This document shows, in pieces, positions 32,394-40,818 of a DNA stretch of 64,000 nt (the stretch's first letter is position 1; each line of letters opens with the position of its first letter). The translations under genes and the position numbers were made by a program. The DNA is from Podospora anserina. Taxonomy: Eukaryota. The notes under the pieces are model-generated. The model saw nothing but the letters and a program-made list of their open reading frames with translations, did no database searches and was not told the origin of the DNA. The stretch lies in the NCBI GenBank assembly GCA_017654855.1, contig CM030333.1, positions 1,364,001-1,428,000 of the forward strand. The letters are read 5' to 3'.

Positions 32394-34418
32394 TCAAGAT
32401 ATATACTTTGGACTCCTCCACCCCCCAAACCCGCTAAACCACCTGCTCCCGCTCGTCCCAGGAAGTGACCTCCTAGTCTTGTGACCCGCTCCCGGCGGAG
32501 GAGGGAATGCCCCTTGGCCCATAGGAGGCGTCAGCAAGCTCTCGTTGAATCTTGTCGAGGTAGCGGGAGCGGTGCCAGGAGTGCGAGGTCTGGTTGTTGT
32601 GCCTAGCGACGTACCGGGTCGGGGTGCTTCCTGGGCTTGTTGTTGTCTTCCCCCACCAAACGGGCAGGAAGAAAGTGATGTTCCTGGCCGACGGCTGGAC
32701 GGACTGGGGTTGTTGAGTGGGATGTTGACCATGCCTTCTGTTTGAAGGCCAAGCTCGACTCGTCCAAGACGGGATTGGGAAGACCGGGCGCGGGGTCGGT
32801 GTTGGGGTTGGGGAGGTCTGGTTTCTGAGGTGATGGGGGGTGATAGAGGGAGGGGTTTGTTGGAGGGGAGGAGGGCGGATTTCATGCCTGTTGAGGGGGC
32901 TCGGGGTCTCGTTTCTGGTTGCTTTTGTTGTGCTTGTGGTTGAGGTTCAGATCTTTGTGTTCGTAGAGGGTGGTTTGTCAGGGATGTTATCTTCAATGGG
33001 GCGGGGATTGGTGACCGGCTTGAGTTGATGTTCCTCATGATGTTCTTCGGGGGTGGCTTTGGTGGGGCTGGAAAGAGGGAGAACCGGGGGTTGGATGTTT
33101 TCCTTGGGGCTGGTGAGGTTGAGGGAGCCGAGACCGGTGGCGGAGGGGGAAGGGGTGCTTTGGGGGGCTTGCTAGGTTCCCATGGTGTACCAGCAGGGGT
33201 GAGGTATGTTCTTCGTGCTTTGGAGGAGCGTTTGGTACTGGCTGTATCTGGATTTGAAGCTGGGACGGGTGGCGGTGGTGATGCTGGCAAGGCTGGTACC
33301 GGTGGAGAAGGAGCAGAAGGGAGTTCGGCGAGATTGGAAGAACCCTTTGATCGTCGACGGTCAAGCTCCGTGGTGGCATAGAACCACAGGGCGAAGACTG
33401 TGTCGACACTCCGGCGGTCCACGGCTCTAGGGGAGGGCGTTGCCTTTCTAATTTGTACCATTTCGTGCTCCACGTGTTGGGGTTGGGGAGGTGTTACTGG
33501 CCCGTACGTGTATTCATTGGCGTCGTCGCTTTCGTATAGTCCCAAGTCGAGTAGTGCTTCGGTAGCCACGGAGGAATTGGAAGGAGAGTGTGATGGTGAT
33601 GATCTCGGTTGGTTGACCGGGACGGTCTGATATTCCTGAAAGTGATACATGGGTGCCTCTCTTGCTGTCCCTGAATCCCGCCGACGTTGTTTCCTGCGAC
33701 GGCAGAGGAAGAATATAAAGGCAGCACCGGCGAGAACCAGGAGGATTCCCACAACAATGCCTGCAATGGCAAACCCTGGCAGGGCCCCCACAGTAGTCGG
33801 TGGCGAGAGAGAGGGAGGGCTGGTATTGGATGGACCTCGGACTCCCGTGGTGACCGAAGTGGCAGTAACAGTAGAAAGTGTCGTTCTAGGTCCAAAGTCG
33901 ACCGGCGGCGTTCGAGACTCGCAGCACTCGCTCAGGGGAATAACCAATGTCGTCGTAGTAGGTGCCGGTCGCAAAGCTCTGACCACACGAGTTGTATGGG
34001 ATAGGTCAGAACAGGACGTTGATTCAGGACTTAGACGAGACGCCACATGCATCTTAGACGCTCCATGAGATCGGAACAAAAGAAACACGGTCCATCTTTG
34101 GCTGTTGGTGGAGAACTGGGGGAACAACAGGAGATATAGAAAAGCAGAGCAGGCAACCGGCAGCTCATATACTTGTCCGAGTGTTCTACAAAGGAGACTC
34201 GGTCCTGCAACTGTGAGGGACAGGAATTCTGCCTTTGCCCTCCAAGCTGCCGCATAAGGTACGCGGCATGGCAGTGGGCAAAGAGAGGCAGTGCCATTGC
34301 GGGTGGTCCATGACACCGGGGCCAAAGTGGGAATAGGGAACAGGGTGGTACCACAGCTGACTACATCCAGCGGCGTAGACGCTTTGGGTGTGTCCGATGT
34401 CAGTTGCTGTAAAAACAC
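32394..34418 (-). CDS. Single-pass membrane protein with Ser/Thr-rich stalk and long Pro-rich cytoplasmic tail; 5' end uncertain
   Basis: TM segment FAIAGIVVGILLVLAGAAFIFFLC followed by RRRKQRRR. The ORF has no clear ATG or signal peptide at its start. Confidence 0.7.
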   Translation of the reverse strand: MFLQQLTSDTPKASTPLDVVSCGTTLFPIPTLAPVSWTTRNGTASLCPLPCRVPYAAAWRAKAEFLSLTVAGPSLLCRTLGQVYELPVACSAFLYLLLFPQFSTNSQRWTVFLLFRSHGASKMHVASRLSPESTSCSDLSHTTRVVRALRPAPTTTTLVIPLSECCESRTPPVDFGPRTTLSTVTATSVTTGVRGPSNTSPPSLSPPTTVGALPGFAIAGIVVGILLVLAGAAFIFFLCRRRKQRRRDSGTAREAPMYHFQEYQTVPVNQPRSSPSHSPSNSSVATEALLDLGLYESDDANEYTYGPVTPPQPQHVEHEMVQIRKATPSPRAVDRRSVDTVFALWFYATTELDRRRSKGSSNLAELPSAPSPPVPALPASPPPPVPASNPDTASTKRSSKARRTYLTPAGTPWEPSKPPKAPLPPPPPVSAPSTSPAPRKTSNPRFSLFPAPPKPPPKNIMRNINSSRSPIPAPLKITSLTNHPLRTQRSEPQPQAQQKQPETRPRAPSTGMKSALLPSNKPLPLSPPITSETRPPQPQHRPRARSSQSRLGRVELGLQTEGMVNIPLNNPSPSSRRPGTSLSSCPFGGGRQQQAQEAPRPGTSLGTTTRPRTPGTAPATSTRFNESLLTPPMGQGAFPPPPGAGHKTRRSLPGTSGSRWFSGFGGWRSPKYIS

Positions 34419-35913
34419 GGTGGAAGCAGTCTTTGCTGATATGTGTTTGCGGCAAACTCTAAGCGCCTGGCGCGCGCACCTTTAATGATGGAGGTGGGCA
34501 GACAAGAGTTATTGGACTCGTGCTTCGGACTAGATGTCCTCCAAAAATCAATATTTCAAACTGGTTGTACAACACCATAACGCGTCAATCGCCTACTTAA
34601 GCGCGCTTCTAGAAGCCGCCCATCGCTTGATGAGGGGAAATCAGAAGACTATTGAGGTTGTGCCGCAAAAGATCCTGCCTCGTATGTTGGATGTCCGAAT
34701 CTCTCCACAAAGATGATGCTGTTGACTGCAGACTCTGACATCTAACCCTGAGAGAGTTGGAAGATTTTCATGCGGCACAGAAGATGTAGCGTGAAAATCC
34801 GGAGGTTCGCCGCCGCCCGAGTTGGTGATGAGTGAGTTCATGGGGCAGATGTGGAGAGACGACCCCTGACGCCATCTCCGGTGTTACTCTGTACTTGGTT
34901 TCTGAAGGTATGACGCAGAGGCTGAAGATTTTAGAACAGGCGATGATGCCTCTCTCAGAATATCCTCGCTCGGTACCGGCAAAAGGGTAATCCACAAAAA
35001 GATCAACGGAACTCTGGAGTGTTCTAGAGATCCCAAGATATCTGGGGAGAGTGGGGGGTTCGACGCCTTGATTTGCCGGCAGCACCTATTTTGGCATGCA
35101 GAAAGGGGGCCACTCGGCGCTTATTCAGAGCCAACACCACCCAAGATCTCGTGGCAGCCCTGTCCCTATTGTCCTTTCTTGCGTGCTTTGGAATGCAAGA
35201 AATCTGTAGCCGCGGGAAACACTGCAGTTGGTTGCGCCAAAGTCGGTAGACGGCCCGTTCGGGAAGGGCTTGTGTGTGTTGGCCTCAGTTCGTCCAGGTT
35301 TTCGGGGTTGTGTTGCCAAGTCGTGCCCGTGATGTTCTGGGTGAAGAGCAAACTGCGCCTGGTTGTTGTGGGCAGTGTTAGCTTTGTGGTGTCTTGGTGA
35401 TCAGTTCTGAAATCAACACTGTCTATCTAGTGCTTGTGTAACTGGGAACCACGCCGAGGGGGGGCGCACAGGTTTAGTTTGCCTGCACGTTTTGGTGATG
35501 CCGAGCTGTTTAAGTCGGTGCCTGACACAGTATGACAAAGCCTTACGGTGACGATATGCGATCGACGCAGTTTCAACTCTGATGATGGAATCAACACCGA
35601 GAGGACCTTGCCTACGGAGTTTAATGCCATCGGTGTGTTTTGTGAAGCGCACCTATATGGCAACGCAAATGAGAAGTTGACACTAGTTCATGACATGGTG
35701 AACACGAGAGAAGCAGGACGTCGAGAGATTGCGAAACATATAAAAAGAACAGCAGATGAGCTGTCGAGCGAGGGATGATGAATTTATCGCCAAATCGGTA
35801 GGTGTTTGCTCGTTGCCATGGCGGCGTGGGATGAAGTCGAGATTGCCTCGTGTGCCTGAGCTGAGATCCTTCGGCGGGATCCCCTAGCTGTTTCGTCTTC
35901 AACTGCCGGCTGC

Positions 35914-35964: not shown

Positions 35965-37632
35965 AAGTCAATCAGCCTGGCCCCTCTGAAAGGCTGGCCT
36001 TGCTTTGACTTTGGAAGCACCGCGCATTGCTGGGTGATGCTGTGCCTCACACTCGGCTATCTGGCTGTCTTTGGTAGGGCAGACAGTTTGTGGCTCCCGC
36101 GACTCCTTACTGCACCACACGCGGCAAAAGCCACCAGTTCGAGGATCTGGGTCGAGAGGGTGTTCTGTCATCCAGAGTGTCTGTTGAAGATGACGGCTTG
36201 GCCGGGTTGGTGATCATGAACGTCTCGTCTCGATGCGGGCCAGAGGTTGGTGCAAGATTCGCGTGCTCCCGTCTGACCAGATCTTTTGTGTGGCATGACA
36301 CAGACCCCAATTAAAGTGCTATCTATATCCGGTCAGCTATAGGTTGCTGTCTGCAGCAGGATAAAAATGACACTTCCCCTCCTGTTTCTTGCAGACTGGA
36401 TTGACACGATGCCTGAAGCTGTAAAGTGCTGGCCAGGTAGAGACCCATTGCCAAGATGGTTGCTGTTTGAGGTTGTCGAAATGCATTCAGCTGAAAACGA
36501 GAGAGAAAGCGACGGCGTCGGCACCGGGGGACGGGACCCACCAAGGGCTTCCGAGCCGAGCGGCCCCGCCGAGGCCGGTGGTCTCGGGCTGCCAAGGACC
36601 GAATCACTCGCATCAACAGCACTGGCGTTTGACGGGCATCGGTCCGTCAATTTGCGACCAACCAATGGGGTATCGAATCATGAAAGAAACGGAAAACCTA
36701 GCCCCACTTGATCTGCCCAGATTCCACCACGGCGCGTAGCCGAATTTAGCGTCCGCTGTCCTGATCGCAGAATGCACGTCGGGAGGGAACGCCGAGACCC
36801 CGCTGAATGTTTCTTCCATCATCACCTGCACTATCACCAGCAGCTACTTGGATTCATCACAGCGTCTTTTGAGTTTTTTTCTTTGGATGAACGGCAGGTC
36901 ATGATGGACTCGAATCCCCGCAATGTGGTACAAGATGTCGTGGCCTGTAGGACATGGACAGATACGCTGCATACGTTTCATGTACCGTTCCTACATTAGG
37001 GCCGGGTCCATGGCGTCTTCCTCCGGCAATTGCGAGATACCAAGAAGCAAAACGAATCCTTCAGCTTGGGTGATTCTTCCCCGCAACTCGACATCTTGGG
37101 CAAGACATAAACGGACTCCTCTTTGTGTCACACCGTTTCCTTCAAACAGAACAACAGCAGTAGCCAGCAGCATGCTTTGAACCAAGGTCAAAGGTCACAT
37201 CTGCAAAACACCGAGCTGCTCGGCAGGTTGGCGGCGCTTAGGGAAGCCATCCCGTTGGCTACCCTCTTTCCATCAGCCTATTCCACCGTTTTCCCCAGCT
37301 CGGAACGGTCGCCCAGAATAGCTCACGTCCGCAGCAACCATATATCCCCACGTGGTGAACGGCAACCCCCTGCGCCTTTGGGGCACTGCTGCTGTTCCCC
37401 TCTCCGTTGAGATCTTGCTGGACTGAATCTGCTTCCCGTCTTGGTGCTTGTGATTTGGAAAGGAGTTGGGATATTCTTCCATTTGCGACAGATTCCACAA
37501 TACAATGATTGACGACGCCGGACTGCAATGATCTTGTTTGGTTGTTTAAAAACACAGTATTCGAAGTGACCACCAGGTCGACTTGGGCTTTCCAATTTGA
37601 GAGGAGGGGCATAGCGGCGCAGGTTGCCCACC

Positions 37633-40600
37633 ATGAAGATTGCCTGTTTACAGTTTGCGCCTCAGGTCGGGGATGTCGACAACAACCTCAACCGGGCTGA
37701 TGCCGTACTGAACAAGGCGCGCACGGGGGATCTTGATGATTTGGACTTGCTTGTACTGCCGGAACTTGCCTTTACAGGTACGTTTATTGCAGATTATTTA
37801 CTCGGGGGGCGGAGAATGCTGATGGGCAAATCCAGGTTACAACTTCAAGTCGCTACAACACATCTCTCCCTGTTTGGAACGTCGTGACTCTGGAATCAGC
37901 TCTCTCTGGGCTCGAACTACCGCCCTGAAACACGATTGCGCCGTTGTAGTAGGGTATCCGGAGAAGGTGGACGTGAGCGCAAGATGGCCAGCGAACCCAG
38001 AGCACTACAACTCAGCTCTCATCGTAAACCGAGATGGCGATACTGTTGGCAACTACCGGAAGCTACACCTATTTTTTACCGATGAGACCTGGGCACTCCA
38101 AGGGCGGGATGGTTTCTTTCGGGGCAATGTCGAAGGCTTGGGGAACGTTGCTTTGGGTATTTGCACTGACATAAAGTAAGCCTGCTGTCTTTAGTGAGTT
38201 CTCCCTAGACATTTCTAACAATGTCTAGTCCATACGAGTTGGAAACACCATGGGAAGCTTTCGAATTCGGATTTCACGTCATGGAAGCACACGCAAATGT
38301 GGTCATAATCAGCATGGCCTGGCAATCTCAACAGGATCCCGGCCAATACACCCGTCGGCCTCACGAGCCGGATCTCGAGGCCCTGGTGTACTGGGTTCAG
38401 CGTCTTGAGCCTCTGATCCGGGAGGATAGTGAGGAGGAGATTATCGTCGTCTTTTGCAACCGGACTGGTGCTGAAGACGATGTGATGTACTCGGGAACAA
38501 GTGCCGTCTTGGGCATCAGAGGAGGGGAAGTTTACGTGTATGGGGTCCTCGGACGTGGAGTGAAGGAGTTACTTGTGGTCGACACGGACCAGCCTCCACT
38601 CAGCAAGTTGACCGATGCCTCAGGGGTCGAGGCCGAGAATCCTTACGCCGAGGAAACCGACGTCGAGACTGAGCCCATCAAGCGCCGTGCGCAGGCCCTC
38701 GAGATCCAGATACCGGCCAAGGAGACGCCCAAAGAGCCACCAACATCGCATCCGATCAGCAGTCGCATAGAGGCTGTGTCAGCAACCCCCAAGTCTGCAT
38801 CTTCTGCTCGGTTACCCTGGCTTGCACCAGCTGAGCCTGATGCCCAGAGTCCCGGCAACCCCCGATCACCTACTCGACTGCAGATACCTGTAACACCAGT
38901 GCGACCGAGTGCGGAAGAATTCACTCTCATCGACAGCGCCATTGCCGAAGACATTGCCATTCCCACAGCAAGATCATCGCGGACTCCAAGCCCGGACCTG
39001 AAGGCAGCATCGCGTCCCTCGAGGCTATCAATACCAACGACCCCGTGGAAGTTTCGAGACAAGGCCAGCCCTTACCCATGGCAATACCGAGATGGGTCGC
39101 AGTCAGCTCTTTTTGGTGGGGGAGCTTGCATGACGCCAATAACACCGTTCGAAGTTGAGGAGGGCTGGTTGGGGACACCCATTGATGCTAAGCCACCAAA
39201 CTGGTACTGGAAGCACGATCACTCACTCTCCGCCGTCAAAGAGGCGATACAAGAGGAGGAAGAGGTGTCGCCGGGGAGCTCCTCAAAGCCAACCCAGAAG
39301 GTGGGAGGGCTTGAACCAGCAAAGACACAGCAAGACGCCTCTAAAGTCCGAGATGCCACACCGATCGACACAGAACCGCCAAATTGGTACTGGAAGCACG
39401 AGCCACAGTTGTCTTCTCTTGACGAGATACTCCACGAGGAAGCAGAAGGTGAACAAACCGAGACAGGAGAGAGCCCCAGACCGGAACAAGCCGCACCGTC
39501 AAAACCCACTAGTACCACCGTGGCAGAGGATGTCTGGGTAGCCACACCCATCGACAATGAAGTTCCAGATTGGTACTGGAAACACGAGCAAACGCTACCC
39601 TCCCTCAACGAAACAGCACAAGAGGAGCCTGAAGAGGACGAGCCAGAAGCAAAACAACAAGAATCATCCAGACCACGCCAAGTCTCAGCAGAAGACGTCT
39701 GGGTAGCAACCCCAATCGACAACGAGGTCCCAGACTGGTACTGGAAACACGAACAAACACTGCCCTCCCTTGACGAGACAGAAGACGACCCGCCACAGAA
39801 TGCCCCCCAACCAGCCACCATCACCACCACCACCACCACCCCAGCAGAAGAAGAAGAAGAAGAAGAAGAAGACCACACCCCCACCCCCATGGACGAAGAA
39901 CCCCCCGATTGGCACTGGAAACACGAACAGACCCTCCCTCCCCTCAACGAGGAACACCCATCCCCTTCCCACTCCCAAGACTGGGCAGACCTCTCCTCTG
40001 TGTTGACTAGTTTCAAGATACACCCAAAGTCAGTGTTGAGCAACTCCAGTGCTGCGCAGGATATTGGTGCGGAGAGGCCTAGCTCGCCCAAATCGCGGAA
40101 TGCGAGTCGGTCGAGGCAGATTTATAGCTCGATGGAGAATTATGATTGGGAGCAGGGGCAGCAGCAGGCGAGGGGGGGTGGTATGCAGGTCCTTGGTAGT
40201 GGTGGTGGTGGGGTGAGGAGGCAGTCGTCGCGGTTGAGGAATGTTGTGATGATAGGGGATGGTGTTTCTGATGTTGAGGACGAGGAAGAGCAAGCTCACG
40301 CCCGAGGGAGGGTTGGGTCCAGATACCGGAGTGTAAGCCGTGGTCGCCAACCTGGGCGGGTGAGGGGGGCAGGGATGGAGGTTGAGAGGTCGGGTTCGAG
40401 GCATAGGGTTTTGCTACAGCAGAACAGTCTACGAGATGGCATATCCCTACCGCGACAAAGTTGCCAAACTTTGCAAGACAAGCGGCCAGAACAGCAACAG
40501 GACGACAGTTATCGACAGCACAAACCAAGCATAGATTACGCCGCGCTGCCTAACTGGCCTTTTCCCCCTTCGCCGGAGGATATCATTAAACCGGCTGGGA

Positions 40601-40818
40601 CTTTGTCGAATCTGTCCGTGGTGACGGTGGACGATGATCACAGTCCGGAGACGCCCAAGATGATGGGGATGGGGATGGCGATTTCGCCGGTGGGGGAGGA
40701 GTATGAGGAGTTTGAGTATGGGTATCGTCATGGGGAGTGGGACGGTTGGGAGGGGAGTAAGAGGAGTTTGTTGAATGAGGAGTGGGAGGGGAGGAGGGGG
40801 AGGAGGGGGAGGGTTTGA
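37633..40818 (+). CDS. NTA1: Protein N-terminal amidase (nitrilase/carbon-nitrogen hydrolase fold) with long repeat-containing C-terminal extension; introns 37778-37835 and 38176-38228
   Basis: MKIACLQFAPQVGDV; catalytic triad E (LPELAFTGYNF), K (NYRKLHL) and C (GICTDINPY); also FCNRTG and YSGTSAV. Confidence 0.88.

Follow-up and report, generated by a model that had tools for sequence, protein, structure and literature searches.

A five-copy linear motif maintained at the peptide level in the disordered tail of an Nta1-type N-terminal amidase of Podospora anserina, and its putative docking role

The window analysed here is a stretch of 64,000 nucleotides of Podospora anserina (contig CM030333.1 of assembly GCA_017654855.1, positions 1,364,001 to 1,428,000 of the forward strand). 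It carries on its plus strand a three-exon gene (37633-37777, 37836-38175, and 38229-40818; all positions are those of the window) for an Nta1-type N-terminal amidase, of which the long C-terminal tail contains five spaced copies of a tryptophan-rich motif. The spliced product has 1024 amino acids and is identical over its complete sequence with CDP25256.1 of P. anserina S mat+, named at its source 'Putative protein of unknown function [Podospora anserina S mat+]'. The exons, introns, and motif copies are located as follows.

37633..37777, + strand: exon 1, covering codons 1-48 and one further base; the CN_hydrolase domain starts here, and LVLPELAFTGY contains E44
37778..37835, + strand: intron 1, 58 nt, GT..AG (GTACGT...CAG); skipped by the contigs of 4/4 runs
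37836..38175, + strand: exon 2, CN_hydrolase core with K124 (NYRKLHLF) and C158 (LGICTDINP)
38176..38228, + strand: intron 2, 53 nt, GT..AG (GTAAGC...TAG); skipped by the contigs of 4/4 runs
38229..40818, + strand: exon 3, end of the catalytic domain (~residue 296, ~38631), predicted disordered tail, and stop codon
39175..39243, + strand: motif copy 1, TPIDAKPPNWYWKHDHSLSAVKE, the ancestral copy; its orthologs are the single Chaetomiaceae copy and, in other Sordariomycetes, the (S/T)P..[WY][FY]W[RK]P form
39358..39426, + strand: motif copy 2, TPIDTEPPNWYWKHEPQLSSLDE
39544..39612, + strand: motif copy 3, TPIDNEVPDWYWKHEQTLPSLNE, in a 28-residue identity with copy 4 over 39523-39606
39709..39777, + strand: motif copy 4, TPIDNEVPDWYWKHEQTLPSLDE, in the same identity with copy 3 over 39688-39771
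39883..39951, + strand: motif copy 5, TPMDEEPPDWHWKHEQTLPPLNE, the most divergent, with 17/23 residues matching the Cercophora samala ortholog

The unit reads TP(I/M)D-x3-P(N/D)W(Y/H)WKH(E/D)-x2-L-x2-(L/V)-x-E. A first-pass annotation, made from the letters of the window without database searches, had placed five such peptides in the tail, and this was borne out by the regular expression TP[IM]D...P[ND]W[YH]WKH[ED], which matched all five in the spliced protein at residues 478-492, 539-553, 601-615, 656-670, and 714-728 (39175-39219, 39358-39402, 39544-39588, 39709-39753, and 39883-39927). The motif starts are 55-62 residues apart. All five copies are followed, as had also been described, by L..(L/V).E, of which L25 and E30 of the 34-residue unit are invariant, and by an acidic spacer; the spacers between copies are 32-39 residues long and net acidic, with 7-12 acidic versus 0-5 basic residues. 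When the 728-residue tail was shuffled, a full match appeared in 0 of 100,000 shuffles and one W[YH]WKH in 7 of 100,000, versus five observed. Tandem Repeats Finder gave no DNA-level repeat of the unit, and returned only (ACC)10 and (AGA)9.

The copies were then compared codon by codon. AEDVWVATPIDNEVPDWYWKHEQTLPSL is the translation of 39523-39606 and of 39688-39771 alike, although 13 codons differ between these stretches by one nucleotide each, and every one of the 13 changes is synonymous, as the annotation had counted for copies 3 and 4; just outside this block, 18 of the 20 upstream codons are non-synonymous, and downstream the differences are non-synonymous from the next codon. In a simulation, 13 random substitutions were all synonymous in 0 of 200,000 trials. 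Nei-Gojobori counts over the 21-codon core gave, for all ten copy pairs, a proportion of synonymous differences (pS) of 0.61-0.95, which is near saturation, and a proportion of non-synonymous differences (pN) of 0-0.24; for copies 3 and 4, pS is saturated at 0.77 and pN is 0.00. Since the synonymous sites are near saturation and no tandem repeat of the unit is seen in the DNA, the repeat is old and is maintained at the peptide level only.

The same contrast was observed between species. A search restricted to the region returned 10 relatives, all of them Podosporaceae-like (Podospora, Cercophora, Triangularia, Apiosordaria, and Cladorrhinum), with 3-5 copies each. Among 38 units taken from 10 proteins, T0, P1, P7, W9, W11, H13, L17, and E22 are invariant (38/38), and I2 and K12 occur in 37/38; an exception is P. 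pseudoanserina, of which copy 5 lacks the TP and copy 4 reads ...WKHK. Cores that are 1:1 orthologous in two five-copy species are identical to those of P. anserina at 105/115 and 101/115 positions (91% and 88%), versus 93/157 and 75/154 (59% and 49%) for the spacers of the same two species, and the motif is therefore more conserved than the spacers, which vary in both length and sequence, as does the copy number. Furthermore, orthologous copies across species are more alike than paralogous copies within a species. Purifying selection on the peptide, proposed at first from copies 3 and 4, was hence gauged in two ways, by paralog codon comparison and by core versus spacer protein identity, and both point to strong selection of this kind.

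The transcript was checked using contigs from four sequencing runs of four studies, which are labelled RNA only as a guess (14 runs are so marked, and these are four of them). Both introns are precisely removed in the contigs of 4/4 runs. A single spliced contig without differing letters spans the 5' untranslated region (37300-37498), both joints, and the five motif copies, and reaches ~40730-40739 (3/4 runs); the contig gap at 39808-39889 is a masked repeat stretch, across which the record coordinates run on. The word share was 0.87-0.91 in the four runs versus 0.99 in runs of ~36 Mb, and this lower share, together with the spliced form, fits transcript assemblies. One transcript for domain and repeats had been assumed, with an early transcript end set beforehand as the refuting outcome. 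The spliced contigs join the catalytic domain to the repeats and carry all five copies, and on these contigs the transcript does not end before them.

Nta1 deamidates N-terminal Asn and Gln in the Arg/N-degron pathway with Ate1 and Ubr1. An intact catalytic domain of this type had been read from the translation, and database comparison leads to the same assignment. PF00795 (CN_hydrolase) matched exon 2 alone at E 5.4e-10 and 39.5 bits (cut-off 23.2), exon 1 alone at E 0.021, and a full-length ortholog (P0001, 95-97% identical) at E 2e-17. Among solved structures, the entries of yeast Nta1p were the best matches, with E 2.4e-24 (residues 1-196) and 5.7e-23, followed by other structures of the nitrilase superfamily (PH0642, nitrilase) at 2e-11 or weaker. 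The protein has E44, K124, and C158, which are nearly invariant among 91 relatives and fall opposite PEF, YRK, and GIC in the alignment with yeast Nta1p; Glu, Lys, and Cys at these three positions form the catalytic triad of yeast Nta1. Several orthologs are labelled 'Protein N-terminal amidase' by their sources. AlphaFold2 predicted residues 1 to ~296 to fold as alternating strands and helices, most blocks having a predicted local distance difference test value (pLDDT) of 70-96. Judged from its sequence, the catalytic domain is an intact Nta1-type domain, nearer Nta1 than other branches of the nitrilase superfamily. The catalytic Cys itself (GICTD; codon C158 of the window, near 38160), which Podospora keeps, has given way to Gly in six relatives and to Ser in a seventh, out of 112 sequences with this segment (P0068, P0070, P0071, P0049, P0066, P0076, and P0032).

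The distribution of the motif was examined with a profile of the five units, as the first-pass annotation had suggested for copy number and for co-occurrence with the CN_hydrolase domain. Against 1.84 billion representative proteins it gave 18 matches at E<=0.001, of which 17 are orthologs or paralogs of the Podospora gene and one (P0022) is an unrelated repetitive sequence. Six of the 17 carry PF00795, and the others come from gene calls that lack the N-terminal part; against the Podospora protein, 16 reach E<=4e-18 and the remaining one (P0016) 4e-11, as judged by the single best-scoring BLAST high-scoring segment pair. Three of the 17 have 3-5 stretches and 14 have one, the named single-copy carriers being Chaetomiaceae (Thermocarpiscus, Thermochaetoides, Corynascus, Remersonia, Humicola, and Mycothermus), so that 3-5 copies in Podosporaceae stand beside one in Chaetomiaceae. 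The motif was found in no other protein family among these representatives with the 34-position profile, which is blind to single degenerate copies. No Pfam family matched the 862-residue exon-3 product at E<=1, only PF00795 was found in four full-length relatives, and residues 590-690 had no neighbour in the protein atlas once PF00795 clusters were left out. In line with the first-pass annotation, which was aware of no such repeat in characterised Nta1, the motif matches no described family in these searches, and they show a motif restricted, within the reach of the profile, to this gene family. No publication on the tail or the motif was found in the literature on Nta1 or N-terminal amidase in filamentous fungi, on the Podospora N-end rule, or on the locus tag Pa_2_2890.

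Three short paralogs of Chaetomiaceae (P0068, P0070, and P0071; 431-437 residues) have Gly for the catalytic Cys, and their chains stop just after the motif. They resemble pseudo-enzymes in which the motif is retained, and because such presumably dead chains still end with it, a role of the motif independent of catalysis by the same chain is suggested.

A second profile search, using 13 full-length sequences, gave 649 relatives at E<=1e-10; the figures on relatives rest on the best 120 of the 649, with Sordariaceae (Neurospora and Sordaria) lying outside these 120. Long-tailed Nta1-like proteins of ~850-1100 residues occur here across Sordariomycetes. The best 120 include 103 new relatives, 19 with one full motif copy (29-53 bits) and 84 without. 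The 19 are Chaetomiaceae, Madurella, and unnamed contigs among the matches listed. Many of the 84 have SP.SPR[WY][FY]WRP(S/H)D..LL at the same place, just after TP(I)TPF(D/E)D; among the matches listed, a narrow regular expression for the core occurs in 35 of the 84 and a broader one in 49, and the corresponding counts for the 68 relatives of >=700 residues without the full motif are 34 and 47. In an alignment of 91 Sordariomycete sequences, the aromatic core is retained with W in 81/91 at the W489 column, F/Y in 82/91 at the Y488 column, and R/K in 66/91 at the K490 column; upstream of it, the T478 column has S/T in 76/91 and the P479 column has P in 72/91. Because its aromatic core shares alignment columns with the Sordariomycetes element, copy 1 is, on this alignment, the local form of an old single-copy element, which is the best-conserved point of the tail. 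By the same comparison, the motif itself is not a Podospora invention, and only its amplification to 3-5 copies appears lineage-specific, to Podosporaceae. Three copies are common to the Cladorrhinum / P. fimiseda group, and extra copies of the NEVP type to the group of P. anserina, C. samala, and Triangularia.

The tail comprises ~730 residues after the catalytic domain (728 residues, 297-1024) and had been regarded as disordered in the first-pass annotation. AlphaFold2, run with the 91-sequence alignment, is in line with this, with a tail pLDDT of about 35-50 (<50 for nearly all of 297-1024) and no helix or strand past residue 300; the motif copies in this full-length model have a pLDDT of ~40-50 and no secondary structure. 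Other features of the tail are as follows.

38866..38889, + strand: SPTRLQIP, residues 375-382, invariant in 13/13 Podosporaceae and Chaetomiaceae sequences
39112..39150, + strand: FGGGACMTPITPF, residues 457-469, always preceding the ancestral motif copy; F457, G460, A461, T464, P465, T467, and P468 invariant in 13/13
39810..39872, + strand: (ACC)10 and (AGA)9 microsatellites, encoding poly-Thr and poly-Glu within the spacer that precedes copy 5

Thus the tail has conserved islands besides the repeat: LPWLA, SPTRLQIP, and F.GGA.MTPITPF (38809-38826, 38866-38889, and 39112-39150) are invariant in 13/13 Sordariales sequences. Further islands along the tail to 40815, which recur in the Sordariomycetes consensus lines, are DWA(D/E)LS.VL, RPSSPKSRNASR, RPPSRLR, and SRGRQP, and a C-terminal LLNEEW..RR island was seen in the consensus of the 13-sequence set only. 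The length of the poly-Glu run varies among Podospora species and largely explains protein lengths of 1024-1034 residues.

Taken together, we consider it somewhat more probable than not, at a rough probability of 0.55, that the five units are short linear docking motifs which act multivalently on a folded domain in a partner protein. The copies would sit like beads on the acidic disordered tail of the amidase, each of them able to bind such a domain, and an increase from 1 to 3-5 copies would raise avidity or let several partner molecules bind at once; the multiplied motif would in this way recruit or localise the enzyme. Linear motifs are preferred to a folded repeat domain because the tail is predicted to be disordered and the spacers and the copy number are variable. 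The invariant Thr-Pro that precedes the aromatic core could plausibly serve as a switch phosphorylated by a proline-directed kinase, and phospho-regulation of this site is also suggested by the Ser/Thr-Pro found at the same place across the class. The first-choice partner would belong to the Arg/N-degron targeting complex (Ubr1, Ufd4, or Ate1), since yeast Nta1 sits in that complex: according to passages of PMC11441550, the yeast targeting complex contains Nta1 and Ate1 with Ubr1 and Ufd4.

Several points weigh against a docking motif. AlphaFold2 gave no hint of a bound conformation. The profile search, in which single degenerate copies are undetectable, returned no other family with the motif, and hence no set of proteins sharing a common reader, which is unlike most catalogued ligand motifs. 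Furthermore, yeast Nta1 joins its complex without such a tail, so that the tail is not needed there in yeast; the characterised yeast protein has 457 residues, and the solved chains have 459. Finally, conservation over ~23 residues is long for a simple docking motif.

A fuller scenario, which we hold only tentatively, can be drawn for the class as a whole. Sordariomycetes would have given the amidase a disordered tail, on which the best-conserved element, a phospho-switchable Trp motif, tethers the enzyme, and in some lineages its dead paralogs, to a specific cellular machine such as the Ubr1/Ate1 complex or to a vesicle coat, and this tether would have been multiplied 3-5 fold in Podosporaceae.

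The vesicle coat is also the subject of the alternative that survives best, although we regard it as unlikely: the units might be di-tryptophan motifs that bind coat proteins, either as in the delta-COP class (LIG_deltaCOP1_diTrp_1) or as in a related class of appendage-binding motifs, and tether the protein to COPI or another vesicle coat with avidity, as in Dsl1 or ArfGAP. Tryptophan-based motifs amid negative charges bind the delta-COP mu-homology domain, as stated in passages of PMC7145657, and a passage of PMC4868844 names a WxW motif for the unstructured Dsl1 lasso. The core (D/N/E)-W-(Y/H)-W with E/D three residues on, the acidic spacers, and the predicted disorder speak for this reading, and both of its tryptophans (W9 and W11) are present in 38/38 units. 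The charge around W.W is divided, however, with D/N/E before the first Trp, E/D at +3, and acidic spacers, but K (37/38) and H (38/38), which are basic, directly after the second Trp. The T-P, P7, L17, and E22 positions are moreover as conserved as the tryptophans, and are not known to be required by LIG_deltaCOP1_diTrp_1. In other Sordariomycetes, [WY][FY]W[RK]P stands in an SP-rich rather than an acidic context.

Regular Trp/Tyr clusters, acidic low-complexity spacers, disorder, and a species-variable copy number would be expected of aromatic stickers, which would bring about self-association or condensates with no single defined partner. We judge this improbable. Generic stickers tolerate substitution, whereas eight positions are invariant here in 38/38 units, and conservation of the non-aromatic T, P, P, H, L, and E equals that of the tryptophans; among the matches listed, the majority of Sordariomycetes have just one copy, which leaves no multivalent self-association.

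It is also conceivable, but in our view rather more doubtful, that the motif docks on the CN_hydrolase domain, within its own chain or in an adjacent molecule, and acts in autoregulation or oligomerisation. The motif always co-occurs with this domain, and the short dead paralogs keep both the fold and the motif. The AlphaFold2 model, in which the copies have a pLDDT of ~40-50 and no secondary structure, does not suggest a docked state. A complex prediction for residues 1-296 with one 34-residue unit scored 0.02 versus a mark of 0.34, and this score, which stands alone without folded controls, speaks neither for nor against binding.

That the units are structural repeats folding into a compact repeat domain is very improbable. 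Each unit has ~23-28 conserved residues with a hydrophobic periodicity (W.W...L..L), but AlphaFold2 gave no secondary structure and low confidence throughout, the spacers (32-47 residues) have no constant length or sequence, relatives among the matches listed commonly carry one copy, and no Pfam repeat family matches. A neutral origin of the repeat, with no function of its own, through recent duplication or gene conversion within low-complexity sequence, for which the microsatellites and low-complexity runs of the region and the copy number differing among genera would speak, can practically be dismissed, as peptides are kept at saturated synonymous sites, orthologous copies across species are closer than paralogous copies within species, and the DNA has no tandem repeat of the unit.

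Four catalogued classes were also considered and rejected. A secreted repeat-peptide precursor (a Kex2-processed repeat protein or a precursor of fungal ribosomally synthesized and post-translationally modified peptides) does not suit a protein with an amidase domain at its N-terminus, and reading of the sequence revealed no KR or RR next to the cores in the four spacers. The Atg8-binding LC3-interacting region ([WFY]xx[LIV]) was likewise rejected by reading the sequence. Against a PPxY ligand of WW domains, Trp stands where Tyr would be expected, and Chaetomiaceae do not keep the PP; for a Cdc48 SHP box in FGGGA, the Gly/Ala pattern does not fit.

On the opposite strand of the repeat region, an open frame at 39219-39890 (minus strand) encodes 223 residues (300 from stop to stop). 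Its translation is rich in Ser, Gly, and Val and seems to be a mere consequence of the acidic composition and codon bias of the sense strand; the synonymous-only variation supports the plus frame as the coding frame. An adjacent open frame of 695 residues (32397-34481, minus strand) has only a 30-bit match to PF21314, a transmembrane-juxtamembrane model, and this match is probably a single-pass membrane segment. The other neighbouring open frames had no Pfam match, and the neighbourhood gave no clue of context.

To our knowledge, all that is known of Nta1, the entry enzyme for Asn/Gln N-degrons, stems from the tail-less yeast protein. The Podospora tail provides a sharply defined 23-residue element with invariant positions, a natural copy-number series (1, 3, 4, 5), and natural carriers that appear catalytically dead, and with it the recruitment or regulation of the amidase can be addressed in filamentous fungi. 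The repeat is also a clean case of peptide-level selection on a repeated linear motif, with saturated synonymous sites and zero amino-acid changes. Its scope is one fungal class and one gene family, and the docking function is putative.

Compared with yeast Nta1p, the Podospora protein shares the catalytic domain and the Glu/Lys/Cys positions; unlike the solved yeast chains, which have 459 residues without a long tail, it adds ~730 disordered residues with the repeats and other conserved islands. The long-tailed amidases of other Sordariomycetes (Colletotrichum, Fusarium, Trichoderma, Pyricularia, and Chaetomiaceae) are orthologs of the same architecture, in which TP(I)TPF is followed by the aromatic W-core, but they have one copy only among the matches listed, and outside Sordariales the element reads SP.SPR[WY][FY]WRP(S/H)D..LL versus TPID..PP.WYWKHE..L..L.E. 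Passages of PMC5952832 report that expression of an nta1 homolog of Trichoderma reesei (TR_121284) is confined to the MAT1-2 mating type, the difference being >=50,000-fold by reverse-transcription quantitative PCR, and these passages contain nothing on the tail. LIG_deltaCOP1_diTrp_1, as described for Dsl1, Gcs1, and ArfGAP1, has W-x-W in a disordered, largely acidic stretch with several copies, as in Podospora, of which the conserved flanks are, however, much longer and include the basic K-H after the second Trp; the class is taken here from parts of its database paper and of a review. The delta-COP di-tryptophan class is hence the nearest catalogued motif by form, but on this sequence comparison it does not fit well. 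What is already known in this system is its enzyme family, and what is new is an undescribed, lineage-amplified linear motif.

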